NCBI RefSeq assembly: GCF_003334255.1
Contig: NZ_QOWU01000071.1
Origin: Escherichia coli
Lineage (GTDB): Bacteria; Pseudomonadota; Gammaproteobacteria; Enterobacterales; Enterobacteriaceae
DNA length: 19,170 nucleotides
Direction: 5' to 3' (one strand)
Of this stretch, positions 1 to 16,479 are shown piece by piece (position 1 is the stretch's first letter; each line of letters begins with the position of its first letter). The notes below the pieces were generated by a model. The model made no database searches and had not been told where the DNA came from. It worked only from the letters and a program-made list of their open reading frames with translations. Position numbers and translations under genes: made by a program.

Positions 1-265
1 TATTTTCCGAATGCATAATGACCTCCTCTGGAATATCCCACCAATGCTATAGTGAGTATATAAAGGTCATACCATCTACGTGTTCTTCGGTAGCGATCAC
101 GGCGGCGAGCGTGGTGCACTGTTGTACGGGCTGATCGGCACCTGCCGGTTGAATGGTATCGATCCGGAAGCGTATCTGCGCCATATCCTGAGCGTACTGC
201 CGGAATGGCCTTCCAACCGAGTTGACGAACTCCTGCCATGGAACGTAGTACTCACTAATAAATAA
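1..265 (+). CDS. IS66-family transposase, C-terminal fragment (5' end outside window)
   Basis: Translation ...GALLYGLIGTCRLNGIDPEAYLRHILSVLPEWPSNRVDELLPWN... matches the conserved C-terminal region of IS66-family transposases; reading frame is open to the window edge. Confidence 0.8.
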
Positions 266-296
266 GCGTCAATACGGTGCTCCATTGACGCTTACA
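1..296 (+). mobile_element. IS66-family insertion sequence, 3' end only (window begins inside the element)
   Basis: Transposase C-terminal ORF ends at 265. 266-296 holds an 8-bp-stem hairpin (GCGTCAAT...ATTGACGC) and ends ...CGCTTAC, i.e. GTAAGCG on the other strand, which I recall as the IS66-type terminus. Exact boundary is inferred. Confidence 0.6.
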
Positions 297-492
297 AATA
301 TCCGGGATATTGCAGGCAAATGTAGTCCATCTGCACCTTTGATGTGCAGTCCATCACCCGTTTAAACGCCTCCATGTAGTCATAACAGCCCTGCAATAAT
401 TGCGCGTCACCATCCTCAGTCAGAGGAAACCGGCTGGCGTAGTCATGAACTATTTTTGCCAGTTGTTGCTGCTCTGTGGTTAAGTCGATCAT
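292..492 (-). CDS. Hypothetical small protein (66 aa), translationally coupled downstream of tnpR
   Basis: ATGA start/stop overlap with tnpR (ATG at 492-490, tnpR stop at 491-489). Its stop codon lies inside the putative IS66 terminus, so the C-terminus may be altered. No family recognised. Confidence 0.45.
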   Translation of the reverse strand: MIDLTTEQQQLAKIVHDYASRFPLTEDGDAQLLQGCYDYMEAFKRVMDCTSKVQMDYICLQYPGYL

Positions 493-1064
493 TTTTGTCC
501 TCGTGAAAGCGTTCTATAAACTGTTGGCCGCGACACTGCGAACAGATCCGCCAGATCGCTGATCGAGTACTGGCCGGTTTCCCGCATGCGGCACAACTCT
601 TTTTGCTGCTTTTCAGACAGCTTAGGTTGTTTTCCCCGCAGTTTTCCCTTTGCCCGCGCAATCGCCATCCCTTCCCGGGTACGCAGACGTATCAGATCGC
701 CCTCAAACTCAGCAAAAGTGGCCAGCACATTGAAAAACATCTTCCCCACAGGGTCTGCTGGGTCGTAGAGACTGGTTCCCAGCGCCAGCTTCACACCCCT
801 GGCCTGTAGTGCATCCGCTATCTCACGTGCGTCAGGAACTGACCGCGCCAGACGGTCAAGCTTGGGAACAACCAGCGTGTCACCGCTGCGCACAGCGGCC
901 AGCGCCTGATCCAGTCCGGGCCGTTGCCGGTTTGAGCCGGTCAGCCCTTTATCAAGGTAAATCCGGTCCGGGGAGACGCCAAGTCTGACCAGCGTTTCCT
1001 GCTGTGCGGTTAAATCCTGTTTATCAGTAGAGCATCGGGCATACCCGATCCGTATTTCAGGCAT
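489..1064 (-). CDS. tnpR: Tn3-family serine recombinase (resolvase)
   Basis: 191 aa; N-terminal catalytic region IRIGYARCSTDKQDL, DRLARS motif, C-terminal helix-turn-helix (SISDLADLFAVSRPTVYR); divergent from tnpA as in Tn3-family transposons. Confidence 0.9.
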   Translation of the reverse strand: MPEIRIGYARCSTDKQDLTAQQETLVRLGVSPDRIYLDKGLTGSNRQRPGLDQALAAVRSGDTLVVPKLDRLARSVPDAREIADALQARGVKLALGTSLYDPADPVGKMFFNVLATFAEFEGDLIRLRTREGMAIARAKGKLRGKQPKLSEKQQKELCRMRETGQYSISDLADLFAVSRPTVYRTLSRGQK

Positions 1065-1212
1065 AAATGTGTACGTTTAAGGGGCCATGAAAGAGATTGA
1101 TACCGTACCAGTTATATGAGACAACGTCAGCAGTGATTTTCTCTGAAGCGCAAATTTAATTTTTACCGTCCGCAGAGCGATCCTCTTACGGACATGATTA
1201 ATCGGGGTCAGG
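1065..1212. promoter_or_regulatory. res-like region with divergent tnpR/tnpA promoters
   Basis: 148-bp intergenic region between divergent tnpR and tnpA containing inverted half-sites (GTCCG...CGGAC); position fits a resolution site. Subsites not mapped. Confidence 0.45.
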
Positions 1213-4200
1213 ATGACAACGCGTGGCAAAGCTACAGGCAAAAGTGAACGGCTGGCGGTTTTAAATAGCGCCGAGCAGGAGGCACTGTATGGTCTTCCTG
1301 ATTTCGATGATGCACAGCGACTGGAATTCCTGGCGCTGGAGGAATCAGAACTGGCGCTGGCCTGTAGTCGTCAGGGTCTTCACGCTCAAATTTATTGCAT
1401 CCTTCAGATCGCTTACTTTAAAGCCAAACACCTGTTTTTCCGCTTCGGATGGGGTGATGTTAAGGACGACAGTAACTTTGTGCTGAGCCGTTATTTTCAG
1501 GGTGAATCACTTCCGGAGCTGACTCTCACCAGGCACGAGCGCTATGCTCAACGCGAAAAAATCTGCTCACTGTACGGTTACCAACCGTGGTCATCTTCTC
1601 TGTCGCCACAGCTTGAACAGCAGGCAGCCAACATTGTTCACCGGGATGTAACCCCCGGCTTTGTTGCCACGGAGCTGATTATCTGGCTCAACGAACATAA
1701 AATTATCCGCCCCGGTTATACCACGCTTCAGGAGCTGGTAAGCCGGGTCCTTTCTGAAGAAAGGCAGCGTCTGGGACGTATACTGACGGAACAGCTTGAT
1801 GATGCAACTATTGCTGACCTGGGCAGACTGACTGAACGTGATGATACCCTTTCCCGGCTCGCAATCCTCAGGCAGGATGCGCGTGACTTTGGCTGGCGCC
1901 AGATGGTTCACGAACGGGAAAAGCGGGCTATCCTGGAGCCGCTGCACCATAAAGCCTGCGATATTTTGCCAGCACTGAATATTTCGCAGCAAAACCTGCT
2001 GTACTACGCCAGTCTGGCAAATTTCTATACCGTTTACGATCTCCGCAACCTGAAACCGGAGCAGACCCGCCTTTACCTGTTGTGTTATGCCTGGGTTCGC
2101 TATCGCCAGTTCAGTGACAACCTGGTGGATGCGATGTTTTTCCATATGAAACAGCTTGAGGATGAGAGCCGCAGCGTGGCCAGCCAACTCATGGCTGATA
2201 TGCAGGAAAAATACCGGCGCGAAACGTCTAAAATCGGGCGTCTGCTGTCGCTTTATGTTGATGACAGCGTTCCTGACCCCACCACCTTTGGTGAAGTCCG
2301 CCGCCGGGCCTGGAAAATAATGCCCAGGGAGACGCTGAAAACTACAGCACAACGTATGAGCGTGAAGCCCGTCAGCAGACTGGCGCTACAGTGGCAGGCC
2401 GTGGATGGCATGACGGCATTAATACGGCGTCACCTGCGACCATTATATCTTTCACTCGATCTCACCAGCGTGGTCCGGGACAGCCCGTGGGCAGAGGCGC
2501 TTAACTGGCTCAGAACGGTGTTCAGCAAAAAACAGACGCTTTTGCAGCGGCCACTTGAGGAGTGCCCGCAGGTAACGTTACCTGCGCGGCTGCGCCCGTA
2601 CCTGCTGGAATTCGGTGAGGATGGTGAGCCCACAGGCCTGAATGCCGGGCGTTATGAGTTCTGGCTCTATCGTCAGATAAGAAAGCGTTTTCAGGCGGGA
2701 GAATTCCACCTCAATAATAGCCTCCGGCACCGCCATCTTTCTGATGAACTGGTACCGGAAGGGGAACAGGCCACAGTGCTGGCTGAAATGAACATCCCGT
2801 TCCTGCAGAAGCCCATTAAAACACAGCTAAAAAAACTGGCATCCGAGCTGCACCGACAGTGGAAAGTGTTTAACCGTGAGCTGAAACAGGGGAAACTGAA
2901 ACATCTGGAATACGATAAAGAAACGCAGAAGCTGACCTGGCATAAATCGGTGGCCAGCCGTTATAAGTCGCAGAATAAGCGTTTTTATGAGCAACTGCCA
3001 TTCTGCGATGTGACCGACGTCTTCCGCTTTGTTAACGGGCAGTGTCGATTTCTTCCCGCCATGAAGCCGCTGCAACCCCGTTACGCCAAAAAAGAAGCTG
3101 ATGTAGACAGTCTGATGGCGGTCATCGTTGCCCAGGCGATGAACCATGGCAACCATGTGATGGCGCGAACCAGCGATATACCATTCCATGTGCTGGAGAC
3201 CACGTACGAACAGTACCTTCGTCTGGCGTCTCTGCTCACGGCCAATGACTGTATAACCGATGCTATAGAAGCGCTACCGGTTTTTCCGCTCTATTCGTTT
3301 GATCCGGAGACGCTTTATGGAGCTGTTGACGGGCAAAAATTTGGTGTTGAACGTCCGACAGTGAAAGCACGGTATTCACGTAAATATTTTGGTCGTGGTA
3401 AAGGCATGGTGGCCTACACGCTGCTGTGCAACCACATTCCAGTCAACGGATACCTGATTGGCACAAACGACTACGAAGGCCATCATGTATTTGACATCTG
3501 GTACCGCAATACCTCAGCAGTGAAACCCACGGCCATTACCGGTGACATGCACAGCATCAACAAAGCCAACTTTGCGATCCTGCACTGGTTTGGCCTTCGC
3601 TTTGAACCCCATTTTACTGGCCTTAACAAACAACTTCAGGAACTGTACTGCACCAGAGACACGTCAGCATATAAAAAATGCCTGATCCAGCCTGCCGGTC
3701 AGATTGACCTGGACCTTATCACCCGCGAAAAAAGTAATCTTAATCGCATCGTCGCTACGCTGGGGCTAAAAGAAATGACGCAGGGAACGCTGATCCGTAA
3801 GTTATGTACATATACTACGGCCAGCCCGACAAGACAGGCGGTATTTGAATACGATCGGCTGGTTCGCAGCATTTACACGCTGAAGTATCTGCGTGACCCG
3901 CAACTGGAACGCAATATCCGTCGTTCCCAGAACCGCATTGAATCTTATCACCAGCTGCGTGCAGCAGTCGCCAAAGTCGGCGGCAAGAAGGAGTTAACAG
4001 GGAAAAATGACATTGAAACGGACATCAGTAATCAGTGCGGACGGTTGATCTCCAACGCGATCGTTTATTACAACTCCGCGATCCTGTCACGGTTACTGGA
4101 ACGGCTGGAAGCCGAAGGTAACGAAAGGGGCATAGAGACTCTGACCCGGATATCGCCGGTGGCCTGGCAGCACATTTTGCTGAACGGGCATTATACATTT

Positions 4201-4260
4201 CAGAACACTAATGAAATTATTGACCTGGATGCTCTGGTTGTCGGACTAAAACTGGGGTAA
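1213..4260 (+). CDS. tnpA: Tn3-family DDE transposase
   Basis: 1015-aa ORF, the typical size for Tn3-family TnpA; stop codon lies inside the terminal inverted repeat as in Tn3. Confidence 0.92.
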   Translation: MTTRGKATGKSERLAVLNSAEQEALYGLPDFDDAQRLEFLALEESELALACSRQGLHAQIYCILQIAYFKAKHLFFRFGWGDVKDDSNFVLSRYFQGESLPELTLTRHERYAQREKICSLYGYQPWSSSLSPQLEQQAANIVHRDVTPGFVATELIIWLNEHKIIRPGYTTLQELVSRVLSEERQRLGRILTEQLDDATIADLGRLTERDDTLSRLAILRQDARDFGWRQMVHEREKRAILEPLHHKACDILPALNISQQNLLYYASLANFYTVYDLRNLKPEQTRLYLLCYAWVRYRQFSDNLVDAMFFHMKQLEDESRSVASQLMADMQEKYRRETSKIGRLLSLYVDDSVPDPTTFGEVRRRAWKIMPRETLKTTAQRMSVKPVSRLALQWQAVDGMTALIRRHLRPLYLSLDLTSVVRDSPWAEALNWLRTVFSKKQTLLQRPLEECPQVTLPARLRPYLLEFGEDGEPTGLNAGRYEFWLYRQIRKRFQAGEFHLNNSLRHRHLSDELVPEGEQATVLAEMNIPFLQKPIKTQLKKLASELHRQWKVFNRELKQGKLKHLEYDKETQKLTWHKSVASRYKSQNKRFYEQLPFCDVTDVFRFVNGQCRFLPAMKPLQPRYAKKEADVDSLMAVIVAQAMNHGNHVMARTSDIPFHVLETTYEQYLRLASLLTANDCITDAIEALPVFPLYSFDPETLYGAVDGQKFGVERPTVKARYSRKYFGRGKGMVAYTLLCNHIPVNGYLIGTNDYEGHHVFDIWYRNTSAVKPTAITGDMHSINKANFAILHWFGLRFEPHFTGLNKQLQELYCTRDTSAYKKCLIQPAGQIDLDLITREKSNLNRIVATLGLKEMTQGTLIRKLCTYTTASPTRQAVFEYDRLVRSIYTLKYLRDPQLERNIRRSQNRIESYHQLRAAVAKVGGKKELTGKNDIETDISNQCGRLISNAIVYYNSAILSRLLERLEAEGNERGIETLTRISPVAWQHILLNGHYTFQNTNEIIDLDALVVGLKLG

Positions 4261-4292
4261 CGGAAATTTCGGCGGTTCCGGCGTAGAACCCC
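4255..4292. repeat. 38-bp terminal inverted repeat of the Tn3-family transposon (tnpA-proximal end)
   Basis: Reverse complement reads GGGGTTCTACGCCGGAACCGCCGAAATTTCCGTTACCC (outer GGGG, inner end overlapping the tnpA stop). No matching second copy found in 1-500. Confidence 0.7.
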
Positions 4293-4909
4293 ATATCGCT
4301 CTTACTAGGGGAGCAGTAAACCAAAAATGAAAAGTATTATTAAAGAGAACGTTGGCAGGAGCAGAGGTAGTGACAGAATCACCAAATCCCTGTCAATATG
4401 TGATTTTTTGTTCTTAACGTGGTATCTGAAATTCACTCGTTTATCCGTTTTCACATAACACCTGCCATTTGCTTTACCTGGCCTCTTAAGTTGTATGAGG
4501 CATAATTTATTCCAGACAATATTTTATGGCCACTTTTAACCTGTGCCATTTATTACCTCGTCATTATATCGTCACCAGGATATGCCGCGTCAGCGGCATG
4601 GAAGGCGGCACGCTGTGGTTACATGTGATACCGGAGTAAAACCGCCGAAGCCCGGCGTCAGCCGGTACGGATTGATAGATTTCACCTTACCCATCCCCAG
4701 CCCTGCCAGACCATATCCGCTTTCAGCCATGACAGAGCTTCTGTGCGCGGTCGGAGTGGTCCCGACGAGGGTTTACCCGAAGTCGGGGCGTATCTCCGCG
4801 TTAGCGGGCCGTCAGGGCCGCTTACGAGCGTGTACTCGATACGTCCAGCCAGAAGACTGGCAGCGATGACAATGTAGTTACAACATTCATAATTAAAAGC
4901 GATGTTGTT

Positions 4910-4941
4910 CCCGCCCTTCGGGCGGGGGCGGCCTCGCTTTT
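4910..4941. other. GC-rich hairpin (7-bp stem CCCGCCC/GGGCGGG, 3-nt loop) followed by a short T-run
   Basis: Seen directly at 4910-4926, T-run at 4938-4941; function unknown, lies between the transposon end and the origin region. Confidence 0.3.
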
Positions 4942-5079
4942 CAGTTATGAGGGGTGGGCACGGTGCTGCGTTTGTGTGGTGTTTTTATTCCTGATGTCTT
5001 TTTGCTGTGGTTTCAGCGGTGAGGTTCGGGGCCCGCGCGTCAGCGTGGGAGGTGCATATCAGTCTGTCCACAGGACAGG

Positions 5080-5280
5080 CATTGAACAGGTTTTCTTTTT
5101 AAATGGAAGTAATTAAGTAGTTTAAAGGAAATACAGTACTGGAGTTTAAAAGAAACATTGCACCCTGTAACGCCTGCGGCTGGCGCTTTATAGCATTAAC
5201 GGTTGTAACCTTATGGAGAAGTCCCTTGCAGTTAAATGTGGATAAACAGAATTACCCGTCTGTGAGACGTGTTTTGCGTG
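5080..5280. promoter_or_regulatory. IncFII-type replication origin region (oriR) candidate
   Basis: AT-rich stretch at 5090-5160 and a consensus DnaA box TGTGGATAA at 5237-5245, about 175 bp downstream of the repA stop, the position of oriR in R1/R100-type replicons. Confidence 0.45.
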
Positions 5281-5420
5281 AAAAACAGGGGGAGCATGAT
5301 GAGCCGGAAGGCAGATGATGAGGCTGTTTTTTGTGTGCTGTGCTGCTTTTTTGTGCGTCGCCGGGCTTCAGACGTGCGGAAGCCTCCGGCGCAGGCCGGA
5401 TTATTCAGATGAGGTCAAAC

Positions 5421-6293
5421 TCAGGGTGAGGCAGTGGCCAGCCGTGTGTAGTTGTTGTTCCGCGACATTATCATGCGCTCCTTCACGCGACGGTCGATTT
5501 CGCGCTTCACGGCTTCCAGGCTTCCCCGGAAACGCCCTTCCGCAATTTCACGCGTCAACTGCCGTTTCACCAGGGTGACAATGTCCTGACGGGTCCGGCC
5601 CGCATCACGGCGCGCACGGGCACGTTTCATGCCGTGGGCCTTGCGCTCTGCCTGGTAACTGCGGAAACGCTCGCGCACAAAACGCCAGGCTCTCGCTATC
5701 AGTTCATCCATACCCAGCGCATCCAGCCCCTGCTTTTTGCGCAGCTTGTTTTCCCATTCCACGCGGCTGCGGCGTGCGGAAGCCACCGCCTCTTCAGAGA
5801 TATCGAGTGAGGCAAACAGTGCCGGCGTGAACGTGATGTCGGTCGGAATGTTACAGCCAATTGTCGGGTCGTATTCCGTCTGGTAGGTCATCAGCCCCAG
5901 CTCAGCCAGGAACTTCAGGGCACGGGTGGCACGGGTGATGGAGAGTTTCCCGGCCTCAGACTCCGTCGCCAGTCCGCACTCAATGGCCAGCGTGGTGATG
6001 GAGCACTGCACGCGGTTGGCCAGCGGGTCATAGTGGAAACACAGCCCCTGCAGCAGCGCATCAATCGCCCTTCGGCGCAGCACTGGCGGCATACGCCGGC
6101 GCAGGCCGCGCGAACGTGCATACGCCACATGCGCGGCAAAATCAAAACGGGAGGTGAAGCCCACGGCCTTTTCCATCAGTTTTTCGCAGAACTTCAGCGT
6201 TCCGGCATCTTCACGGGGTGTGAAGACCGGATTCGGGTTCTTTACCTGACGGTATGTGCTTTCAGTAAATGAGGTCTGGTTCAGGGCCGCCAC
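5421..6293 (-). CDS. repA: IncFII-type replication initiator RepA (RepA1)
   Basis: 290 aa; [86 protein letters not shown] and the C-terminus RLATASP match R1/R100 RepA1 as I recall it, along the whole length. GTG start. Confidence 0.92.
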
Positions 6294-6370
6294 AAGCTGT
6301 CGCTTATGGCGGGCACAGAATGCCGTGCGTTAATGCACTGCAAGGGGTTGAATCTCTGACACGGTTTCAT
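6281..6370 (-). CDS. Leader-peptide ORF (29 codons) overlapping the repA start (tap/repA6-like)
   Basis: ATG at 6370-6368; stop TGA at 6283-6281 lies 10 nt inside repA, as in IncFII translational coupling. Peptide sequence itself not recognised. Confidence 0.4.
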
Positions 6371-6456
6371 ATATACTTATCCCGTATTCTGTGAGGCCCC
6401 CACTATCTTTCTTGAGCCCGCCAAAGTTCATCGAAAGATAGTGGGGGTTTTCCTTT
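6365..6456 (+). ncRNA. CopA-like antisense RNA (5' end uncertain)
   Basis: Plus-strand hairpin with 15-bp stem CCCCCACTATCTTTC/GAAAGATAGTGGGGG (6396-6447) followed by TTTTCCTTT; antisense to the tap start/RBS region. Possible -35 TTGAAT (6348-6353) and -10 TATACT (6372-6377). Confidence 0.45.
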
Positions 6457-7129
6457 ATGGTCTTCTGAAACTTTTTTCAGCCTTCCGGCCCCGGCAAACA
6501 GCCGTCGTTTCTGCCATACATCCTGAATGCCTTATGGCGCATCCTGCCGTTTTCTGACTTTCCGGATCGCGAGGATCCCAAAAGCCACTGCATAACGATC
6601 CGCAATATACCTCGTTTCCACCGCTTTGAAAAGCCGACATGATTTCTCAGGGTTACAGTTGCCCTCTTTAACTCCCCGAAAAAGCGTCGTTTTTTTGAAC
6701 TCTGTCAAAAAAATGAACAATTCCGCAAACGATCTTTTATGCTGTGTTTTTCATCATTTTTAGTAGAAGAGATCGCGTTATTTTTTTAAACGATCTAATC
6801 GTCCACAAATCGCATTTGACTCAGAACAATATACTGCTTTATTTGATGTAACAATCTATTCAACTGCTTATTTGGACTATTGCCACATATGCAACCTTGT
6901 GTAGCATGTTTATCAGCCATTAATCCTGTTTGGGTAATTGGCAGTTTTCGCCCGCCTCGAAACTGTCAAAAAGGCTTACAAGAGTGCACAACGCATGTGC
7001 CTGTCAGAACTGCAGGCCGGGCTGAACGAGGGTCAGCCGCTGTTTCCGACACATGCTTTATGTATTCGCCGTTCACAACAACATCGAAGCCCCCCTGCGG
7101 GGATCGATTTTCGCGGAGCGTTCCGGATT

Positions 7130-7636
7130 TTGAATATCAGTGAATTACATCAACGCAACTGGTATCTGGCACAGTACATTGCTGCCGGTAAAAATCGCGA
7201 ACATCTCTTTTCCTGGCTTTCCGAACAACACGTCCTTCCCTGGACACCCCTGATACTGAAAAAGGTCCGCCGTACGGATAAAGTCTGTGGTTACCGTCGT
7301 CATATACACGCCGTGTTTCCCGGTTACTTCTTCCTGAAAGCAGACCCCGAACGCCACGCTTTCACTCACCTGCGCCGTCACAGTGCCTTTCTGGACTTCG
7401 TGAAAATGGCCGGTGAAATCAAAACCGTCAGGGAGGATATCGTTCAGTCCCTGATGAAAGTGTACCCGGATCCTGCGCTCAATCCGGCAGCCAGGGAGGA
7501 GCTGGATGCTGCCTCCACCCTCTGGCTGACAAAAGCGCGTTACCAGTACCTCCTCCGGCTTGATGCACAGCCTCTGCCGGAGTCGAGGATCGCCCTGCTC
7601 CTGCACCTGGTATCTGATGACGGAGCGTTGACATGA
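7130..7636 (+). CDS. NusG/RfaH-paralog (NGN domain) transcription antitermination-like protein; start codon uncertain
   Basis: NWYLAQY...HAVFPGYFFLKADPE...SAFLDFVKMAG aligns by eye with the RfaH N-terminal domain (WYLLYC...EPLFPNYLFVEFDPE...VSHFVRFG). The ORF is open from 6938 (TTG); 7130 TTG follows a GGAG at 7115-7118. No clear KOW motif in the C-terminal part. Confidence 0.65.
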   Translation: MNISELHQRNWYLAQYIAAGKNREHLFSWLSEQHVLPWTPLILKKVRRTDKVCGYRRHIHAVFPGYFFLKADPERHAFTHLRRHSAFLDFVKMAGEIKTVREDIVQSLMKVYPDPALNPAAREELDAASTLWLTKARYQYLLRLDAQPLPESRIALLLHLVSDDGALT

Positions 7637-7663
7637 AAATTGCTGTCTTCATTTGACGACTTT

Positions 7664-7690
7664 CCCGGCCTTTATGGCCGGGCTTTTTTT
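7664..7690 (+). terminator. Intrinsic terminator T1
   Basis: CCCGGCC-TTTAT-GGCCGGG followed by CTTTTTTT. Confidence 0.55.
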
Positions 7691-7696
7691 CCCCAA

Positions 7697-7752
7697 TGCC
7701 CGGCACCGGTGACACCTGCGTGTACGGAGAGCGGCTGCCGGGCATTTTTTTT
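7697..7752 (+). terminator. Intrinsic terminator T2 (long hairpin with 9-bp closing stem) immediately upstream of the next RBS
   Basis: TGCCCGGCA ... TGCCGGGCA followed by eight T; ends 1 nt before the AGGA RBS of the gene at 7765. Confidence 0.5.
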
Positions 7753-7764
7753 CAGGACATCGTT

Positions 7765-8280
7765 ATGACCATTCAATCCCCGGAAAACCCTGTCATTCAG
7801 TTACTGGAGAATATGCTTGAAGCGCTCTCCACCTCCCCGGACAGCATCAACAATGAACGACGTCGCCGGCGCTTCCTGCTGAACTGGCTTGATTCCGCCC
7901 GACAGATGAGTGAGTTCAGGGGGATGCCTGAAGAGTTCACCGCCCTGCGCAAACTGCTGGCCACCAATACGGACATACCGGTAGAGAACACGCTGAAATC
8001 ACTGCTGGAAAGTGGCCACAACGCAGCACTGTATGACCTGTACCGCTTCCGAGCAGCGCTTGCCACGTGCAGGAGTCTGGGATGGCAGATTGGCACGTGC
8101 GCATGGAATGACCAGTTACTGAGTGAGACACTTTCCCGCGCACAGACCGGGAAACGTCATATCCTGCAGCTGAACAGCACCGGGGACACCTTTTCCACCA
8201 CGGGCAGAATGATCAGACCGGTGGCATTTTCATTAATCCATCCGGCCACCATCAACACGTCTGAGGTTGAAGAGATATGA
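7765..8280 (+). CDS. Hypothetical soluble protein (171 aa)
   Basis: ATG at 7765 with AGGA 8 nt upstream; longer ORF from 7696 rejected because its start lies inside terminator T2. ATGA overlap with the next gene. Confidence 0.6.
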   Translation: MTIQSPENPVIQLLENMLEALSTSPDSINNERRRRRFLLNWLDSARQMSEFRGMPEEFTALRKLLATNTDIPVENTLKSLLESGHNAALYDLYRFRAALATCRSLGWQIGTCAWNDQLLSETLSRAQTGKRHILQLNSTGDTFSTTGRMIRPVAFSLIHPATINTSEVEEI

Positions 8281-8810
8281 CCGGCATTGGTAACTGGATA
8301 GTCAGCGTGCTGATTGGATATGCTGCTGGCCCCCTGTGGGCTGCCACCCACCTGGGAACAAGCCAGGACCGGGGAAGCCGGGCCGCTTACGGTTACATCT
8401 ACCTGATAGACAGCATGATCAGACCGCTGGTGATGGTATTCGGGTTCTTTTTTGCATCGGTCTCCATCGTGGCCGGCGGCACCATTCTGAATGCGTTGTT
8501 TGGCGCGGCTCTGGTTAATGTGCAGGCGGACTCCCTTACGGGGTTATTCAGCATCGCTGGATTTTTGCTGATTTATGCCCGAGTCTGTACCACGCTGGTT
8601 GCGGCCGTTTTTGCGCTTCAGGCTTATCTGCCTGACCATGTGATTAATTTTCTGGGCGGACGTGACGGCGTTAATATGCTGGGGAATATGGCATCTTCGG
8701 TCAAAGATATTATTGCTGGCGGAAATACCAATATGCGCAGAACACCTGGCGTACGTGAAGAAAAACTGAAAAATATTAAAGGAGATGATAAAGACGGAAT
8801 AAAACAATAA
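8277..8810 (+). CDS. Hypothetical integral membrane protein (177 aa)
   Basis: Several hydrophobic segments (IVSVLIGYAAGPLWAA, LVMVFGFFFASVSIVAGGTILNALFGAAL, LFSIAGFLLIYARVCTTLVAAVFAL), hydrophilic lysine-rich tail; coupled to upstream gene. Confidence 0.6.
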   Translation: MTGIGNWIVSVLIGYAAGPLWAATHLGTSQDRGSRAAYGYIYLIDSMIRPLVMVFGFFFASVSIVAGGTILNALFGAALVNVQADSLTGLFSIAGFLLIYARVCTTLVAAVFALQAYLPDHVINFLGGRDGVNMLGNMASSVKDIIAGGNTNMRRTPGVREEKLKNIKGDDKDGIKQ

Positions 8811-8850
8811 AATGAAAATATCTAAAAACCAATAAAACAGTATTGCCATA

Positions 8851-8884
8851 TTCACCTGAAGAGATTAAAATATACTCAGGTGAA
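8851..8884. promoter_or_regulatory. Perfect 9-bp inverted repeat (TTCACCTGA / TCAGGTGAA) flanking a TATACT element just upstream of the RBS of the 8899 gene
   Basis: Seen directly; candidate operator or leader hairpin. Confidence 0.3.
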
Positions 8885-8898
8885 TATGGAGGTTTATT

Positions 8899-9546
8899 AT
8901 GAGTACAACAAAAAACAGATATCCTTCCTGGTGGGCATATTATTACCTTGTTCGCAATGCGTATTTCATATTTGGCATACCATGCTTATTATTTTATGCT
9001 TTTTTCGGAACACTAATTGTTCATGATTCAGCCTTATCTCAAACAATGGATTTTGTTTTTGCATATGGATGCTGGGCATTAATAATTATCCCATTACTCT
9101 GGCTATATCTGAGAACCAGAGCGAAGAAAAAGAAAGTCCTGCAGGTTGTTCAGCAGATAAAAGAAAGCAGTCTCTTTGCGCCGACCAGCGATTATGAGCA
9201 ACTGTCATTCTCGAAGAGTTGTTATTTCGGGATCGACATTAAAAACGGCACCATGCTGTATGTGCGTATTTATCCAAACAATGTGATGGATGTGATTGGT
9301 CTGGATATTCACAACTTTACCCGCACGGTTGCTGAGGACGGCAAACTGGAAATCCATACCACCTATGTGAGTCTTCCGATGATCCCACTGGAAATCTCCG
9401 GCATCTCATCAAGGACGCTGGCCAACACCATGCACACCATGGCTGCACGTGGATATGAGTACAAGGAACGTTTCCCGCAGATGATCCGGTATCGGGTTAA
9501 AGAGTGGGAAAAAGTTGCCGGTGTACCTGTTGCAGAAGTGTTTTAA
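8899..9546 (+). CDS. Hypothetical membrane-anchored protein (215 aa); AT-rich
   Basis: GGAGG 8 nt upstream of ATG; two N-terminal hydrophobic helices then a soluble domain; last 35 codons duplicated downstream. Confidence 0.6.
   Translation: MSTTKNRYPSWWAYYYLVRNAYFIFGIPCLLFYAFFGTLIVHDSALSQTMDFVFAYGCWALIIIPLLWLYLRTRAKKKKVLQVVQQIKESSLFAPTSDYEQLSFSKSCYFGIDIKNGTMLYVRIYPNNVMDVIGLDIHNFTRTVAEDGKLEIHTTYVSLPMIPLEISGISSRTLANTMHTMAARGYEYKERFPQMIRYRVKEWEKVAGVPVAEVF
9433..9546 (+). repeat. Direct repeat copy 1 (3' end of the 215-aa gene)
   Basis: About 110 bp near-identical to 9938-10051. Confidence 0.8.
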
Positions 9547-9562
9547 GACGGTTATCTCATAC

Positions 9563-9591
9563 ATCCGGTTCATCTGAACCGGATTTTCTTT
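9563..9591 (+). terminator. Intrinsic terminator after the 215-aa gene
   Basis: ATCCGGTTCA-TC-TGAACCGGAT followed by TTTCTTT. Confidence 0.5.
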
Positions 9592-9614
9592 ACTGCAACA
9601 GATAACTTATGTCG

Positions 9615-9824
9615 TTATCGATAAAGTCGCCCAAGAGCCTTGATAGCTGCAACTTTAATTTCCATATCATCACTTTCACTTAATCTACGTAATTCCCTCT
9701 TTATGTTATCTGCCTGGCATCGACCTTCACCTAATGCATAGATCACAGCAAGTGTAACGTCTTTTGATTTATCCTTCATCATTTCAAACAAGAAAGTATT
9801 AGCTATCGCAGGAGACATACTCAT
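9615..9824 (-). CDS. Small hypothetical protein (69 aa), AT-rich, helical-repeat-like
   Basis: Strong RBS (AGAGGA, 8-nt spacer); sequence ...AAIKALGRLYR resembles a single HEAT/PBS-type repeat, tentative. Confidence 0.5.
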   Translation of the reverse strand: MSMSPAIANTFLFEMMKDKSKDVTLAVIYALGEGRCQADNIKRELRRLSESDDMEIKVAAIKALGRLYR

Positions 9825-9937
9825 AATAATTTCCTCTTTATAAAATTAACAAAGATACTCATTTAGATGTATAAACATCTGTATAATAAAATAACTCTTG
9901 CTAAACAAGAAATTAAAATCTTGCATCCACAGTCTCG

Positions 9938-10051
9938 CACACCATGGCGGCACGCGGATATGAGTACAAGGAACGTTTCCCGCAGATGATCCGGTATCGG
10001 GTTAAAGAGTGGGAAAAAGTTGCCGGTGTTCCTGTTGCAGAAGTATTTTGA
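9938..10051 (+). repeat. Direct repeat copy 2 (orphan copy of the gene 3' end)
   Basis: Differs from copy 1 at four positions plus the stop codon (TAA vs TGA); all four fall on third codon positions and are synonymous. Confidence 0.8.
9944..10051 (+). CDS. Orphan 35-codon ORF identical in protein sequence to the C-terminus of the 215-aa protein
   Basis: ATG-initiated MAARGYEYKERFPQMIRYRVKEWEKVAGVPVAEVF; no obvious Shine-Dalgarno, so expression is uncertain. Confidence 0.3.
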   Translation: MAARGYEYKERFPQMIRYRVKEWEKVAGVPVAEVF

Positions 10052-10083
10052 GGTAGCTATCAACTGTTAGACGATAATCCGTC

Positions 10084-10114
10084 AGCCGGTTTTCTCTGAA
10101 CCGGCTTTTTCTTT
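10084..10114 (+). terminator. Intrinsic terminator after the orphan module
   Basis: AGCCGGTT-TTCTCTG-AACCGGCT followed by a T-run. Confidence 0.5.
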
Positions 10115-10166
10115 TCAGGCAGAATGCCTGTCTGCCGTCCCTGTATCAGACTGTAATTTGCACAAT

Positions 10167-10181
10167 ACGGCAATTTGCCGT
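10167..10181. promoter_or_regulatory. Perfect 15-bp palindrome ACGGCAATTTGCCGT; candidate antitoxin operator
   Basis: Located 26 bp upstream of the antitoxin start codon, in the promoter region. Confidence 0.45.
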
Positions 10182-10206
10182 ACAGTGTATTCAGGAGGTA
10201 CAAATC

Positions 10207-10488
10207 ATGCCATCTGCAACACAAACTGCCCGACTGGAAGCAAGAATCAGCACAGAACTGCATGCTATGCTGAAACGCGCTGCAGAAATCCAGGGACGCA
10301 CTATGACCGATTTTATCATTTCTGCCGTTCAGGATGCGGCACAACGCGCTATAGAACAAACCGATATCATCCGACTGTCCCGGACAGATCAGGAAATTTT
10401 TGCTCAGGCATTACTGTCACCAACAGAACCTAATGATGCGCTCAAACGGGCCTTTAAACGCCGTAATAATATTCTATACACAAAATAA
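10207..10488 (+). CDS. DUF1778-type (ribbon-helix-helix) antitoxin of a GNAT toxin
   Basis: 93 aa; AGGAGG RBS; ...LEARISTELHAMLKRAAEIQGRTMTDFIISAV... is typical of TacA/KacA-type antitoxins; immediately upstream of the GNAT gene. Confidence 0.85.
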   Translation: MPSATQTARLEARISTELHAMLKRAAEIQGRTMTDFIISAVQDAAQRAIEQTDIIRLSRTDQEIFAQALLSPTEPNDALKRAFKRRNNILYTK

Positions 10489-10493
10489 ATATA

Positions 10494-10982
10494 ATGTTTC
10501 AGCTGAAACCATTTAACAGCACATATGACAGAACCTCATTTTTATGTGGTTCTGATGCTCTGGACCGTTATATAAAAGAGCATGTCACACAGGATATTCG
10601 ACGACGCATCGCGGCCTGCTTTGTTGCTATAGATAACGATCATCGTATCATCGGATACTATACGTTATCAGCGGCCAGTATATTATTAACTGACTTACCT
10701 GAGCATTTGAGAAAAAAGCTACCACGATATCCTACCATCCCGGCTATTCGTATGGGACGCCTGGCAGTAAGTCTGTCATCAAAAGGAACAGGACTTGGTG
10801 GGACACTTTTAGCTGATGCGCTATATCGTGCATACACATCTGAAATTGCAGCATATGCGCTGATTGTTGATGCAAAAGATGACACGGCAGTCTCATTTTA
10901 CAAACATTATGGATTTATGACGCTCCCGGAGTCAGGGCGAACTTTATTCATGCCACTGGCATCATTATCTGCAATAGAATAA
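10494..10982 (+). CDS. GNAT-family acetyltransferase toxin (TacT/KacT/AtaT-type)
   Basis: 162 aa acetyltransferase fold (…RMGRLAVSLSSKGTGLGGTLLADAL…FYKHYGFM…), 5 bp after the antitoxin stop. Confidence 0.85.
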   Translation: MFQLKPFNSTYDRTSFLCGSDALDRYIKEHVTQDIRRRIAACFVAIDNDHRIIGYYTLSAASILLTDLPEHLRKKLPRYPTIPAIRMGRLAVSLSSKGTGLGGTLLADALYRAYTSEIAAYALIVDAKDDTAVSFYKHYGFMTLPESGRTLFMPLASLSAIE

Positions 10983-11553
10983 CCAGAATAAATCCGGGTA
11001 AAAAAGGGCGCATTGAGGTCAGCCTTCGCAACAATCCGGCGGCAGATTCCCTGCCGCCGTGTTGCCCGTTAACGTTTAACTTCGTAGGCTAACGTTGCCA
11101 CAAGCACCGTATTTCCCTGCTCGATACGAAATCCGCAAAGCGAATCCCTCACCATCCAGACAAAACACAGTATCGTCACACAGAGGACAATTAACATTGT
11201 TAAAAACGTTCGTTGTAGCATCGCAGCCCCTCCATTGCCTTTCGGCCGTTATCGGGCTACTATAATGTTGTCTAGGCATTACAGTAGAGCCCTGGGTTGA
11301 TTGATAAAAAAATCGCCTGGGGCTTCTGCTACATGCCGTCCACAAAACGCTTTCGGCATACAGCCTCAAGCGCCCGCAGCTATTCTAATCGTTTTTCAGT
11401 CTGCCACAATCGTTTTCCATCTAATGACATGTAATGCGCAACGGTATTTTTACGGGAAACAACACGGCAAGGATTCCCGGAACACGTCCATTATTTTATG
11501 GTTACGGACATCATGTTAAATCAGAAAGTAATAATGACCTGAAAGGAAATGGT

Positions 11554-11796
11554 ATGAGTAACGAATACCAAAGCACCAGTATAAACCCGGATGTTTTTGA
11601 ACAATTTCTTACCCTTCTTAATACACACTGCCAGTCCTCAGAAGAGTCGCTCGCCATGCTCAGCACGCTGTGTTTTGACCTTATGATGAAATGTGGTATT
11701 CAGTCAATGGACAGCCTCATGCTCAACGGTATGGGCATATCAATGCAACTTCAGGGTATTGATAATCACAACTGTACAACCTGGAATATTCACTGA
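11554..11796 (+). CDS. Hypothetical small protein (80 aa)
   Basis: ATG at 11554 preceded by AAAGGAAA; the longer ORF from 11434 lacks an RBS. No family recognised. Confidence 0.4.
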   Translation: MSNEYQSTSINPDVFEQFLTLLNTHCQSSEESLAMLSTLCFDLMMKCGIQSMDSLMLNGMGISMQLQGIDNHNCTTWNIH

Positions 11797-11839
11797 CCTT
11801 AGTCTGGACTGAAAACAGTGTCAGCCAGAAATAAACGAT

Positions 11840-11863
11840 CAATGCCTCATACACATGAGGCAT
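11840..11863. terminator. Hairpin between convergent genes (10-bp stem AATGCCTCAT/ATGAGGCATT, 4-nt loop)
   Basis: Seen directly; no strong U-tract on either side. Confidence 0.4.
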
Positions 11864-11888
11864 TGATAACGGTCATAAATAATCTTTA

Positions 11889-13436
11889 TTATTTTTCTGA
11901 TTCAGCATTTCCGGTCAGTACAGGCTCTTCTGGCAAAGACATTACCGGAACGTCACGTTCGCCATTGAATACAGAAACACTTTCGGTGAAACCATTCTGT
12001 AACAAAGAAAAACTTAACGGCAGATTTTTGGTTTGTATCCCTGTGATCCATTGAAAAATCTCGGGAAAACGACGGGCGCTGATATGCACATGATTGAGGC
12101 GGTGCTCAGTAATATCACTTGCCATCATCATGAGAGGCACATCGTATCCCGAACGCAAACCTGGCGCATGATGCACAGGGGTGCTGTCTGAACTGACGGA
12201 TTGCCCATGATCAGAAAAATACAGCATGGCAAAATCATCGCCATGCTCTGTCGTCATGTTATAAATTGCCTGAAGAAACCGATCCAGCTTAAGCAATGTT
12301 GATAAATAACAGGATACTTTATTTCCGAATAATTCCCTGAACGGCTGTGCATCATTAAAAAGTCTGTCACAGGGATTAGGATGGGATCCCAGCATATGAA
12401 TGAAAATCACTTTTGGAGAAGACGAATTAACAGCTTCCCTGACATACTGAAGCATATCTTCATCATCAATGCGACGGGAAGAAGAGTTCCCTTCCTTAAG
12501 AAAATATTTCTTATCCGCACTGGCGGCGATGACAGAAATCAGCGTATCATGTCGCCCTAAAGAGCCCTGATTTGATATCCACCACGTTTCATATCCGGCT
12601 TTTCTGGCAAGCGTAACAATATTATTACCCGGATTACCTGTTTCAGTGTAATCAAGAGTCAGTGTTCTGCTGAGTGAACCTGTCGTATTCGGAGCAGCGG
12701 AGAAATACCCATTAATAAATATACCCGGAGCAGAGTTCAGCCATGGTGTTGTCGGCAAAGGATACCCATAAACAGAAAGATAATCCCGTCTGACACTTTC
12801 ACCAATTACGATAATTATAGTTTTATATTTCTTCTCCACACTCACAATATCCCATGAGTCTTTCTGATTGTTTTTCAGCGATTCATATCGCATCATTTCT
12901 TCTCTGGTTTCAGCTATCCCCGTTATTACATTCGTAACCATACGTTTTGGCCATGCATTTACTGACAATACGATAAAGAACAACAGAAAGATAAATCCCC
13001 GGTGGCTTTTTTCACGCTTACGCCAGAACCAGAATGTAAAAGCAGCAATGACCAGTGAAACAATAAAATAAAAAACAGGTATGCCTGTGATAAATTCACC
13101 TGCCTCATTTATATTTGTCTGCATTACAGACGCAATAAAACTGTTGTTTATTTTTCCGTAAATCATTCCAACCGGAGCATAGAATGCACTTAACAAAAGA
13201 AAGATACAGACACACGTCGCTGAAATAACATTCCGCCGCCCCAACGACATCATCAGGAACAATATAAGTACATTCCCTGTGGCGTTTTTCACTGTATATC
13301 CGCAGCACCATGTAACAAGTACAGAAAACAACAGATAAATCAGTGACTCTTTACACCACAACATAAAATAAAACTGTTTTGCCATCTCAAAAGCACATTT
13401 GGATTTTTCTTTAATACGAGACACGCCAGTCATTTT
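11889..13436 (-). CDS. Phosphoethanolamine-transferase-like membrane enzyme (sulfatase/alkaline-phosphatase superfamily, EptA/MCR/OpgE-like); start uncertain
   Basis: N-terminal hydrophobic helices followed by a catalytic domain with IIIVIGESVRRDYLSVYGYP, KVIFIHMLGSHPNP and AMLYFSDHGQS, resembling the VVGETARADHVSFNGY / MLHQMGNHGP / MLYVSDHGES blocks of MCR/EptA. AT-rich. ORF open to 13445 (TTG); first ATG at 13436. Confidence 0.75.
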   Translation of the reverse strand, partial: KMTGVSRIKEKSKCAFEMAKQFYFMLWCKESLIYLLFSVLVTWCCGYTVKNATGNVLILFLMMSLGRRNVISATCVCIFLLLSAFYAPVGMIYGKINNSFIASVMQTNINEAGEFITGIPVFYFIVSLVIAAFTFWFWRKREKSHRGFIFLLFFIVLSVNAWPKRMVTNVITGIAETREEMMRYESLKNNQKDSWDIVSVEKKYKTIIIVIGESVRRDYLSVYGYPLPTTPWLNSAPGIFINGYFSAAPNTTGSLSRTLTLDYTETGNPGNNIVTLARKAGYETWWISNQGSLGRHDTLISVIAASADKKYFLKEGNSSSRRIDDEDMLQYVREAVNSSSPKVIFIHMLGSHPNPCDRLFNDAQPFRELFGNKVSCYLSTLLKLDRFLQAIYNMTTEHGDDFAMLYFSDHGQSVSSDSTPVHHAPGLRSGYDVPLMMMASDITEHRLNHVHISARRFPEIFQWITGIQTKNLPLSFSLLQNGFTESVSVFNGERDVPVMSLPEEPVLTGNAESEK

Positions 13437-13591
13437 CCTGTACAAAAACAGACAATCATTTCAACGCATGGATATTTATATGAAACAGCTCACAAAAATA
13501 CCCTGCTCTGTCTAGCAAGATTACATATTATCAGGTTTTGTGTTTACAGCAACTGCTCCCCGGACCAGATTATTCGCATAACCCGATGAAT

Positions 13592-13612
13592 GACTCATCA
13601 TTATGATGAGTC
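13592..13612. other. Perfect hairpin GACTCATCA-TTA-TGATGAGTC just downstream of the 151-aa gene
   Basis: Seen directly; possible terminator or regulatory element. Confidence 0.35.
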
Positions 13613-13623
13613 TCAGGATTCAT

Positions 13624-14079
13624 TTAGTTAACAAAAATACTTCTTGCCTTCCCGGAAAGGCAAACATACGAAAGAGAAAGCATGGCTATAATAATATCAA
13701 TCAAAATATGCTCAATCTTTCCTGTTGTCATACATTCAGCACCGACAACATAAAGACAATAAACAAAAGTGACAGCATGGTGTGATATATAAAGAATATA
13801 AATGCACAGAAGTAATTTTCCGACGACTCTTTTCCGTTTAAAGAAAGAATAAATGAAGAACAAGCATAAAGCCGCCAGAAAAAGAAAGGTAGCTATGGAG
13901 ATTATAAAATACTCCATCACCTGTGAATTCTCATCCAGAGATGTGTACAGCGAATAATATGTGGCTGTGAGATTAAGTCCCGTTATCAATATATAAACAA
14001 CTGATAATAGTATAATATAAAGAATCAGACCAAATCTGGTTTTCTGTGCTCTGGTTAATACTTCTGATTTATCTCGCAT
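13624..14079 (-). CDS. Hypothetical integral membrane protein (151 aa), AT-rich
   Basis: About four hydrophobic segments; no family recognised; upstream of the transferase-like gene on the same strand. Confidence 0.5.
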   Translation of the reverse strand: MRDKSEVLTRAQKTRFGLILYIILLSVVYILITGLNLTATYYSLYTSLDENSQVMEYFIISIATFLFLAALCLFFIYSFFKRKRVVGKLLLCIYILYISHHAVTFVYCLYVVGAECMTTGKIEHILIDIIIAMLSLSYVCLSGKARSIFVN

Positions 14080-14166
14080 AAAATATCCTGTCTGTAATCT
14101 GTCCCGGTAAACAATGGTAAACGTCAGAATCAGTGCGAATACGGTAACAAAGATTCCTCCTGTGCT

Positions 14167-14847: not shown

Positions 14848-14950
14848 GCCCTGCCTGAAGTATCACACTGCAAATAATAAACACGCCTGAGCATTATTAT
14901 TTCGCAATATTAATTGCACCTGTTTTCATAAATAAAAAGGACAAGATAAA

Positions 14951-16470: not shown

Positions 16471-16479
16471 GGCTGTTCT

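Follow-up and report, generated by a model that had tools for sequence, protein, structure and literature searches.

The replicon carried by the window, the whole 19,170-nt stretch of E. coli DNA analysed here, raises the question of why a locus that resembles those of R1 and R100 has no CopB upstream of its initiator gene. A sequence-only reading had described an IncFII-type replicon in which repA, an overlapping leader ORF, a DnaA box and a CopA-like antisense hairpin with a U-tract are arranged as in R1/R100, with two short minus-strand ORFs and no CopB at the expected position. The ORF list, the motif scan and folding located each of these elements where it had been reported, and a third short ORF lies beside the other two. 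The features of the locus are listed below.

4582-5070, minus strand: segment downstream of oriR, conserved in both IncFII and I-complex plasmids
5070-5420, minus strand: CIS/oriR of IncFII type, downstream of repA; 77-93% identical to R100, with I-complex plasmids at random level
5237-5245, minus strand: DnaA box TTATCCACA, 176 nt past the repA stop
5421-6293, minus strand: repA, 290-aa IncFII-family initiator with a GTG start
6281-6370, minus strand: leader ORF of 29 codons, repB/repY type, overlapping the repA start
6287-6312, minus strand: SLIII, predicted 11-bp hairpin CCGCCAUAAGC/GCUUGUGGCGG masking the repA GTG (6291-6293)
6307-6314, minus strand: distal pseudoknot partner GCCCGCCA in the 5' arm of SLIII, 8 bp complementary to the SLI loop
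6348-6377, plus strand: candidate RNAI promoter TTGAAT-18 nt-TATACT from the consensus scan, at the expected position upstream of the hairpin
6384-6456, plus strand: RNAI (Inc RNA), antisense transcript of ~70 nt ending in a U-tract, its 5' end placed from the promoter
6397-6447, minus strand: SLI of the repA mRNA, the RNAI target, with a 15-bp lower stem
6455-6640, 6532-6720 and 6477-6605, minus strand: short ORFs, judged to be non-coding promoter or 5' leader DNA
6604-6632, minus strand: candidate repA mRNA promoter TTTTCA-17 nt-TATATT from the consensus scan

CopB is truly absent, as the sequence-only reading had suspected. When R100 CopB was searched against the whole window by tblastn, the best hit (E = 0.55) fell at 2378-2428; within 6450-6950, which includes the interval proposed earlier for an alignment with R100 (6450-6750), no hit had an E below 14. 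NCBIfam returned nothing at E<=10 for all ORFs of at least 35 aa on either strand of 6441-6920, while R100 CopB, the positive control, scored 144.6 bits to NF010256. Likewise, three-frame translations of either strand of 6371-7130 had no Pfam match, while the equivalent R100 interval returned PF10723 at E = 1.9e-31. Neither tblastn nor three-frame Pfam revealed a copB remnant in any frame.

We mapped the locus in 60-nt sliding windows against R100 and I-complex plasmids. From 6270 down to 5070, identity to R100 was 80-98% and the I-complex loci stayed at random level. From 6960 to 6270, two B/O/K plasmids with an unrelated 343-aa I-complex RepA, pO26_1 and UPEC132, were 88-98% identical to the window, and R100 was ~35-45% identical, a random level. 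BLAST homology with R100 begins exactly at 6254, which is repA codon 14, and runs at 80-98% identity to the end of oriR (~5070). The part upstream (6255-6960) could not be aligned with R100, and the control region upstream of repA codon 14 had no nucleotide homology with the R100 copB-copA-tap region. Codons 1-13 of repA (6255-6293) are I-complex-like and those from codon 14 on are R100-like. The module junction at 6254/6255 is abrupt, but it leaves both the reading frame and the signals for translational coupling intact. An IncFII RepA-oriR cassette that starts at repA codon 14 and ends with oriR is very probably driven by an I-complex copy-control module, and the layout, judged from this map, very probably arose by module exchange and not by gene loss.

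The IncFII label given by the sequence-only reading holds for the initiator and the origin, but the whole of the control region before repA codon 14 is of the I-complex (IncI1/B/O/K/Z) family. RepA scored 564.5 bits against TIGR03474 (incFII_RepA) in NCBIfam, where the cutoff is 446.9, and its amino acid identity is 85.5% to R100 RepA and ~20% to the 343-aa I-complex RepA. Among relatives, repA has 22 synonymous versus 8 non-synonymous substitutions. The window, R100, pO26-CRL125 and pDV45 all have the DnaA box at the same distance beyond the repA stop, 176 nt, and the box sequence occurs three times in the window against 0.21 expected. In the segment beyond oriR, the I-complex loci climb to 85-100% identity and R100 shows 57-100%; this segment is likely to be the right-hand crossover patch, and we presume that it may be the primase G-site/ssi region.

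The neighbouring genes are of the I-complex, comprising a NusG-like gene, a traC remnant and excA. In sequence, the window all but matches E. coli plasmids that are typed IncK2/Z. From 6294 to 19170, it differs from NZ_CP145705.1 by 1 nt, and repA is identical; MOB-suite types this record as IncK2/Z and MOBP, and the replicon typing that the earlier reading had proposed gives IncK2/Z for the near-identical plasmid records. The 3669 mismatches to NZ_CP145705.1 over 1-6293 arise because the two sequences diverge below ~4582, and do not reflect a difference in the replicon. We sought the terminal inverted repeats of the Tn3-family element within 1-4700 and found none that were convincing; the left end of the element is probably outside the window. 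We are highly confident that the locus is a natural chimera inside an I-complex plasmid backbone with IncI1-like transfer and MOBP.

The arrangement is already known as the IncZ/IncK2 replicon, whose IncZ form was reportedly first described by Praszkier et al. in 1991 (J Bacteriol 173:2393). The window has the same layout: in an I-complex backbone, an I-complex control module is joined to an IncFII-family RepA of 290 aa and oriR. The reference plasmids pO26-CRL125 (IncZ) and pDV45 (IncK2) likewise have this 290-aa incFII-family RepA downstream of that control region. IncFII and IncB/K/Z replicons have been noted to form mosaics, with Praszkier et al. 1991 cited for this (PMC5466382), and IncZ Rep proteins are reported to resemble those of FII-like pCD-type plasmids (PMC4379921). 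The I-complex replicon is defined as repA, the repB leader and RNAI only, and the IncK2 and IncZ repA genes form one clade (PMC10286972). Since the family consists of these three elements, it has no CopB slot, and since the control module never includes CopB, the missing CopB is ordinary. There is little doubt, then, that the replicon is of the described IncK2/IncZ type, with an IncFII-type initiator and origin joined to an I-complex antisense-RNA control module.

The RNA elements agree with this assignment. While the topology is arranged as in R1/R100, neither the leader nor the antisense RNA is of the R1/R100 sequence type. The leader is colinear with I-complex leaders (79-100% nucleotide identity), whereas R100 Tap, at 24 aa, is unrelated to it. 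It ends with a UGA 10 nt beyond the repA GTG, as in relatives, and a 29-codon leader whose stop overlaps the initiator start would correspond to the translational-coupling arrangement of the I-complex module. The Rfam model PK-repZ, which describes the ColIb-P9 repZ pseudoknot and Inc-RNA target, matched 6306-6455 at full length with 162.5 bits. The description of the antisense hairpin as CopA-like applies only in a loose sense: the major stem-loop of CopA can be aligned with RNAI, and the CGCCAA loop is common to both, but the match to Rfam CopA (RF00042) was 40.5 bits, below the gathering score of 60, where R100 CopA scored 106.3 bits. RNAI is one major stem-loop, and the two-stem-loop structure of CopA is not present. 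Its hairpin (6397-6447, plus strand) is followed by the U-tract UUUUCCUUU at 6448-6456, folds at -36.5 kcal/mol (z = -7.0), and was as stable in none of 200 shuffles. The terminator scan did not report it because its loop limit was 3-8 nt, and the hairpin was assessed by folding.

In the repA mRNA, the leader fold contains SLI and SLIII (z = -5.6), and SLIII is present in both the MFE and the centroid folds of 6270-6470, with columns that are invariant among the related plasmids covering them. The SLI loop presents UUGGCG at 6419-6424, and its pseudoknot bases UGGCGGGC at 6416-6423 pair with GCCCGCCA with all 8 bp intact. Across relatives, four pairs of the SLI stem and two of the eight pseudoknot pairs are changed on both sides. 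One of the latter separates the window from its closest relative, pDV45: the eighth pair is A-U in pDV45 and C-G in the window. The compensatory difference from pO26_1 is of the GGAA/UUCC type. Taking SLI and the pseudoknot together in the seven distinct sequences, a small sample whose members are related to one another, 95.7% of cells are paired versus 47-57% with the partners slid, and six pairs are changed on both sides.

Based on what was obtained directly, namely the chimeric homology map, the family assignments, the predicted hairpins, the pseudoknot complementarity with its covariation and the CopB absence, we propose how the replicon may work. Homology to ColIb-P9 and pMU720 is the basis for the promoters used and for the sequence of events, and these two plasmids also supply, by extrapolation, the transcription start sites, the translation of the leader and the function of the pseudoknot. 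The repA mRNA would be made from one constitutive promoter (candidate 6632-6604), and its leader would fold into SLI (6447-6397) and SLIII (6312-6287), the latter hiding the repA GTG. Ribosomes translating the 29-codon leader (6370-6281) would open SLIII, and the freed GCCCGCCA (6314-6307) could then pair with the SLI loop UGGCGGGC (6423-6416), forming a pseudoknot that would permit coupled initiation at the repA GTG. The antisense RNAI, synthesised in proportion to copy number, is expected to kiss the SLI loop, which would block the pseudoknot and then leader translation. The IncFII-type RepA would act at the adjacent oriR with its DnaA box. In such a circuit, which would operate without a CopB-like transcriptional repressor, copy number should be set by RNAI alone, via leader translation and the SLI-SLIII pseudoknot.

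One alternative is that a novel small protein, encoded by any of the three upstream ORFs, has taken over the function of CopB as a second regulator. The 61-codon frame (6455-6640) is open in seven of the seven B/O/K/Z-type relatives examined, and the 42-aa frame (6477-6605) shows a weak third-position excess (8 of 14 variable sites, P = 0.058). In one S. sonnei plasmid, the third frame carries a RefSeq annotation for a hypothetical protein of 110 aa. However, the short ORFs had no family match in NCBIfam or Pfam, and the variable sites of the 61-aa frame fall 4/10/5 by codon position, peaking at position 2, with more non-synonymous than synonymous changes, unlike repA. In p14EC033g, a plasmid with identical RNAI and a RepA of 99% identity, a stop codon interrupts the 42-aa frame. 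The ORFs differ in length and start from plasmid to plasmid, and they do not occur in the IncI1-like plasmids, which share this control module. Furthermore, the 61-aa ORF starts upstream of the conserved candidate repA promoter, both hexamers of which are invariant across B/O/K/Z plasmids and an otherwise diverged IncI1-like sequence. We rejected the ORFs as a replacement regulator on the substitution pattern, the relative's in-frame stop, the variable lengths and the absence from IncI1-like plasmids, and a small-protein substitute for CopB seems highly unlikely.

Implicit in the sequence-only reading is a true IncFII (RepFIIA) replicon in which copB was deleted or decayed, leaving CopA/Tap control alone. 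The IncFII-type RepA and oriR, the R1/R100-like order of antisense hairpin, overlapping leader, repA and DnaA box, and the weak match of RNAI to CopA are what such a replicon would show. Against this stand the ~700 bp upstream of repA codon 14, which lack detectable R100 homology and are 88-98% identical to I-complex plasmids, the leader of 29-codon repB/repY type in place of a 24-codon Tap, the high PK-repZ score beside a CopA score below threshold, the I-complex neighbours and MOBP typing, and the lack of any copB remnant. Loss of copB from a RepFIIA replicon is scarcely credible on this evidence. An assembly or scaffolding artefact joining an IncFII contig to an I-complex contig, to which the abrupt junction might point, is refuted because the same junction recurs in no fewer than 165 independent plasmid records, all complete and covering at least 80% of 5000-6950, reference IncZ and IncK2 plasmids included. 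The intact frame and coupling signals also speak against such an artefact, and its probability is next to nil.

The IncK2/IncZ assignment, which we prefer, can be compared with the known systems one by one. The IncK2 plasmids pDV45 (KR905384) and pT1.09 have an identical architecture, with RepA at 97.2% amino acid identity and the same RNAI lower stem, leader ORF, SLIII and DnaA-box offset. The mutagenesis primers Phu-T1.09-R1 and -R2 (PMC10724649) match the window exactly, and the difference lies in RNAI, at five positions. The IncZ plasmid pO26-CRL125 (NC_022996) has the same chimeric layout, with RepA at 98.3% amino acid identity, the upstream region at 91.5% and the same DnaA-box offset, but identity is only 78.7% in the SLI/RNAI stem-loop, and the GGAA/UUCC type stands in place of the window's GGGC/GCCC in the loop and the pseudoknot partner. 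In the pO26-CRL125 record, repA sits at the record start. The repY-repZ-Inc RNA system of ColIb-P9 (IncI1) and the repB-repA-RNAI system of IncB pMU720 share with the window the UUGGCG SLI loop, the 29-codon overlapping leader, the start-hiding SLIII, the loop-to-distal pseudoknot, a single-hairpin antisense RNA and the lack of CopB. They differ in their unrelated 343-aa RepA/RepZ and their own origin, and their homology with the window ends at repA codon 13. With the RepFIIA replicons of R1/R100 (copB-copA-tap-repA-oriR), the window shares RepA, the repA-oriR DNA (80-98% identity), the DnaA-box offset and the general logic of an antisense RNA that blocks a leader peptide translationally coupled to repA. 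Unlike these, it has neither CopB nor a CopB-repressed promoter, its leader is not Tap, its antisense RNA lacks CopA stem-loop I, and it has a predicted pseudoknot activator. The R1 model is not known to include such an activator.

The main value of these results is for annotation and typing. Gene-based tools assign the RepA to the IncFII family, whereas RNAI-based typing gives IncK2/Z; the module boundary at repA codon 14 explains the discordance. When the anatomy of R1/R100 is expected, CopB is sought in vain. The boundary also predicts that incompatibility follows the RNAI module and not the FII initiator.

The sole new point, a small one, is the RNAI allele, which is rare. It differs by 5 nt from the IncK2 RNAI, and the exact allele was found in nine PLSDB records. 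All five differences (UUGAG...CAUC here versus ACGAU...CGAC in IncK2) lie in the upper stem, the interior loop or the top-loop base, the parts of RNAI reported to set IncK1/IncK2 compatibility (PMC10724649). The allele could, rather tentatively, mark one more incompatibility subgroup within the K2/Z clade, one that would be compatible with IncK1, IncK2, IncZ and IncB/O. If so, the subgroup would be a fresh case of specificity switching in which antisense RNA, target and pseudoknot co-evolve, and the allele is a minor lead on how I-complex incompatibility groups diversify. Compared with IncK2, the change at the top-loop base goes with a compensating one in the distal pseudoknot partner.

The sequence-only reading had described an IncFII-type replicon at 5080-6720 with a CopA-like antisense element and no recognisable CopB. 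The elements that it listed (repA, overlapping leader ORF, DnaA box, antisense hairpin with U-tract and two short minus-strand ORFs) are all present and are placed here with the other signals of the locus.

Features of the replicon
5237-5245: perfect DnaA box, TTATCCACA
5421-6293, minus: repA, 290 codons, GTG start
6281-6370, minus: leader ORF, 29 codons, overlapping the repA start
6312-6287, minus: SLIII, a predicted 11-bp hairpin over the repA start that buries the GTG
6423-6416 (UGGCGGGC, SLI loop) with 6314-6307 (GCCCGCCA, SLIII 5' arm): pseudoknot partners, complementary over 8 bp
6447-6397, minus: SLI, the RNAI target hairpin in the repA mRNA leader, with a 15-bp lower stem and UUGGCG in the loop (6424-6419)
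6348-6377, plus: candidate RNAI promoter, TTGAAT-18-TATACT
6397-6447, plus: long RNAI hairpin, then UUUUCCUUU (U-tract)
6632-6604, minus: candidate repA mRNA promoter, TTTTCA-17-TATATT
6455-6640, minus: short ORF, 61 codons
6532-6720, minus: short ORF, 62 codons
6477-6605, minus: short ORF, 42 codons, additional to the two already listed

R100 (NC_002134.1; copB, tap and repA annotated), the RepFIIA reference with the layout copB-copA-tap-repA-oriR, was the control in all CopB tests. When R100 CopB was compared with the whole window by tblastn, the best match had E = 0.55 (2378-2428); nothing better than E = 14 appeared within 6450-6950, which covers the interval 6450-6750 in which a significant match would have refuted the earlier reading, and the query found its own gene in R100 at E = 7e-55. 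All ORFs of at least 35 aa on both strands of 6441-6920 hit zero NCBIfam families at E<=10; R100 CopB, by comparison, matched NF010256 ('replication regulatory protein RepA') at 144.6 bits. Frameshifted CopB remnants were sought by translating 6371-7130 in three frames per strand for a Pfam scan; no match was found there, and the equivalent R100 interval under the same treatment gave PF10723 (RepB-RCR_reg, CopB family) at E = 1.9e-31. CopB is truly absent upstream of repA. R100 CopB also matches the IncL/M RepC model (NF040976, 26.3 bits), so IncL/M, a pseudoknot-using replicon, retains a CopB-like protein, whereas the I-complex (IncI1/B/O/K/Z family) and K2/Z replicons, which also use a pseudoknot, do not.

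The short ORFs in this position are unlikely to be genes. Although seven B/O/K/Z relatives keep the 61-codon frame open, its variable sites are distributed 4/10/5 over codon positions 1/2/3, with more non-synonymous than synonymous codon changes (e.g. 8 to 3 against pDV45, the reference IncK2 plasmid); the corresponding counts for repA are 22 synonymous and 8 non-synonymous. In p14EC033g, which has the same RNAI as the window, a stop codon interrupts the 42-codon frame; the 62-codon ORF differs in length and start among plasmids, and none of these ORFs was found in the IncI1-like plasmids examined. Furthermore, the 61-codon ORF starts upstream of the candidate repA promoter, which is unchanged even in otherwise diverged IncI1-like sequence. 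The substitution pattern, the stop, the variable ends, the absence from IncI1-like plasmids and the position of this start led us to reject these ORFs as genes.

RepA is an IncFII-family initiator (TIGR03474, 564.5 bits against a cutoff of 446.9; NF010313, 592 bits), and the DnaA box lies 176 nt past the repA stop, as it does in R100. The window holds three perfect DnaA boxes against 0.21 expected; the other two (15934-15942 and 16686-16694, plus) are far from the replicon. Identity to five references was computed in sliding windows of 60 nt. From 6960 to about 6270 the window is 88-98% identical to the IncB/O/K plasmids pO26_1 and UPEC132, which encode an unrelated 343-aa I-complex RepA (about 20% aa identity), and is at random level against R100 (0.32-0.45) except over the hairpin, where identity rises to 0.58-0.62. 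From about 6270 to about 5070 it is 80-98% identical to R100 and at random level against I-complex loci, and from about 5070 to 4582 it resembles both families. R100 BLAST homology starts at 6254 because repA, in the multiple alignment, tracks I-complex sequence over codons 1-13 (MAGLKNTSYNAVH...) and is R100-like from codon 14 on. The junction leaves the leader ORF with its stop codon, SLIII and the repA start codon together on the I-complex side, so the translational-coupling signals arrive as one intact module. The segment 4582-5070, downstream of oriR and kept in both IncFII (R100) and I-complex plasmids, holds a GC-rich hairpin at about 4915-4935 (GGCCGCCCCCGCCCGAAGGGCGGG). This segment may well be the right-hand recombination patch for module exchange, and plausibly also a primase G-site/ssi signal.

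The antisense element points the same way. Its hairpin folds at -36.5 kcal/mol (z = -7.0; 0/200 shuffles fold as well). CopA (RF00042) reaches 40.5 bits in the window, below the gathering score of 60 and with the major hairpin alone aligned, in comparison with 106.3 bits in R100. The Rfam family PK-repZ (RF01087), which in the IncI1 plasmid ColIb-P9 is the regulatory pseudoknot and the target of Inc RNA, aligns over its full length at 6306-6455 (minus; 162.5 bits, E = 5.5e-37). In nine related sequences, seven of them distinct, 95.7% of SLI and pseudoknot cells were paired, compared with 47-57% when the partners were slid; both members of six pairs were altered, and none of 500 shuffles reached the covariation score. 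With so few sequences, all of them related, the result supports the pairing without proving it. The comparison with pDV45, the closest relative, is the most telling: its loop is UGGCGGGA and its distal partner UCCCGCCA, against ...GGGC and GCCC... in the window, a compensated replacement of A-U by C-G. A block GCGCCAUAAGGC (6529-6540, minus), inside a 38-nt island (about 6505-6545) invariant even in IncI1-like plasmids, resembles the distal partner CCGCCAUAAGCG and could serve the SLI loop as another pairing partner, or act as a site of processing or binding.

The plasmids that match 5000-6950 best are not F plasmids but ones typed IncK2/Z, MOBP and MPF_I, and at least 165 complete plasmids carry at least 80% of this interval. 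E. coli plasmid p2-S1-CAM-02-A (NZ_CP145705.1, typed IncK2/Z) has the same repA and, over 6294-19170 of the window, a single base difference. The layout and DnaA-box offset are shared with the reference plasmids pO26-CRL125 (IncZ) and pDV45 (IncK2) (PMC10286972), whose 290-aa 'incFII family' RepA proteins are 98.3% and 97.2% identical to that of the window, respectively. Among five defining features of R1/R100 RepFIIA, RepA1 and oriR are found here and CopB, CopA and Tap are not. The locus belongs to the IncK2/IncZ subgroup of I-complex replicons and most likely works as they do; it is an already known IncK2/Z chimera with an I-complex control module (RNAI, repB/repY leader and pseudoknot). 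Mosaicism between IncFII and IncB/K/Z replicons is credited to Praszkier et al. 1991 (PMC5466382), and IncZ Rep proteins are similar to those of FII-like pCD-type plasmids (PMC4379921). I-complex replicons consist of repA, the repB leader and RNAI only (PMC10286972), so no second, protein regulator is expected. The reading of an IncFII-type replicon without CopB thus stands for RepA, the origin and the absence of CopB, but nothing is missing from the replicon, since it is controlled by a module of the I-complex kind.

In its anatomy the locus matches the I-complex control circuit in every point. This circuit was reportedly worked out in ColIb-P9 and pMU720 by Asano and Mizobuchi in 1998 and by Praszkier, Wilson, Siemering and Pittard in 1989-1997, in studies that PMC10724649 and PMC10286972 cite. 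By homology with these two plasmids, we infer that translation of the leader would open SLIII, after which the pseudoknot could form and permit repA initiation. RNAI, presumably transcribed from TTGAAT-18-TATACT and ending at the U-tract, would bind the SLI loop and block first the pseudoknot and then leader translation, giving copy-number feedback. The FII-type RepA would then act at the adjoining FII-type oriR.

RNAI of the window differs from that of IncK2 at five positions (UUGAG...CAUC and ACGAU...CGAC, respectively), and its stem-loop is further from the IncZ reference (78.7% identity). The differences from IncK2 sit in the upper stem, interior loop and base of the top loop, the parts that set IncK1/IncK2 compatibility (PMC10724649). 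In PLSDB, 9 records have exactly this allele and 12 an intermediate one (96.5%); many more carry the IncK2 allele (94.1%). The allele of the window is slightly unusual and might define a separate incompatibility specificity.

Neighbouring genes and elements
489-1064, minus: serine resolvase
1213-4260, plus: Tn3-family transposase (NF033527, 762 bits)
7130-7636, plus: NusG/RfaH-like paralogue, divergent from repA
7696-8280: traC remnant ORF, no family match
about 10207-10982, plus: DUF1778/GNAT toxin-antitoxin pair, named from the identical RefSeq record
11219-11375 and about 11069-11221, minus: hok/sok type I toxin-antitoxin (Rfam sok, 116.2 bits)
about 11889-13424, minus: phosphoethanolamine transferase, named from the identical RefSeq record and common to many I-complex relatives
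about 17177-17275 and 17879-17974, minus: annotated DinQ-like dqlB type I toxin genes
17536-17623 and 18281-18368, plus: AgrB-like antisense RNAs (43.5 and 41 bits, just over the Rfam threshold of 40)

The window and p2-S1-CAM-02-A part only below about 4582, where the window has the Tn3-family transposase and resolvase and p2-S1-CAM-02-A has Phd/RelE and other genes, so the window plasmid has a different insertion beside the replicon. Near 4292 lies the end of a possible terminal repeat that reads GGGGTTCTACGCC... inward; a second copy was not found within the window. On the other side, the NusG/RfaH-like paralogue has weak RfaH matches (39 bits, cutoff 124) and occupies the same position in all I-complex relatives examined; it may be an R64 TraB-type transfer activator. 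Homology to the IncK2/Z plasmids p14EC033g and an S. sonnei plasmid ends inside traC at about 8277-8278, beyond which the window continues close to excA (about 8899-9546). It appears to have lost the pil/tra (MPF_I) block that lies between traC and traY/excA, which fits the MOB-suite call of 'mobilizable', without MPF, for the near-identical record. The annotation of the identical record includes a Hok/Gef CDS. Each AgrB-like RNA lies opposite and upstream of a dqlB gene, an arrangement that suggests tandem duplication of a type I toxin-antitoxin pair.
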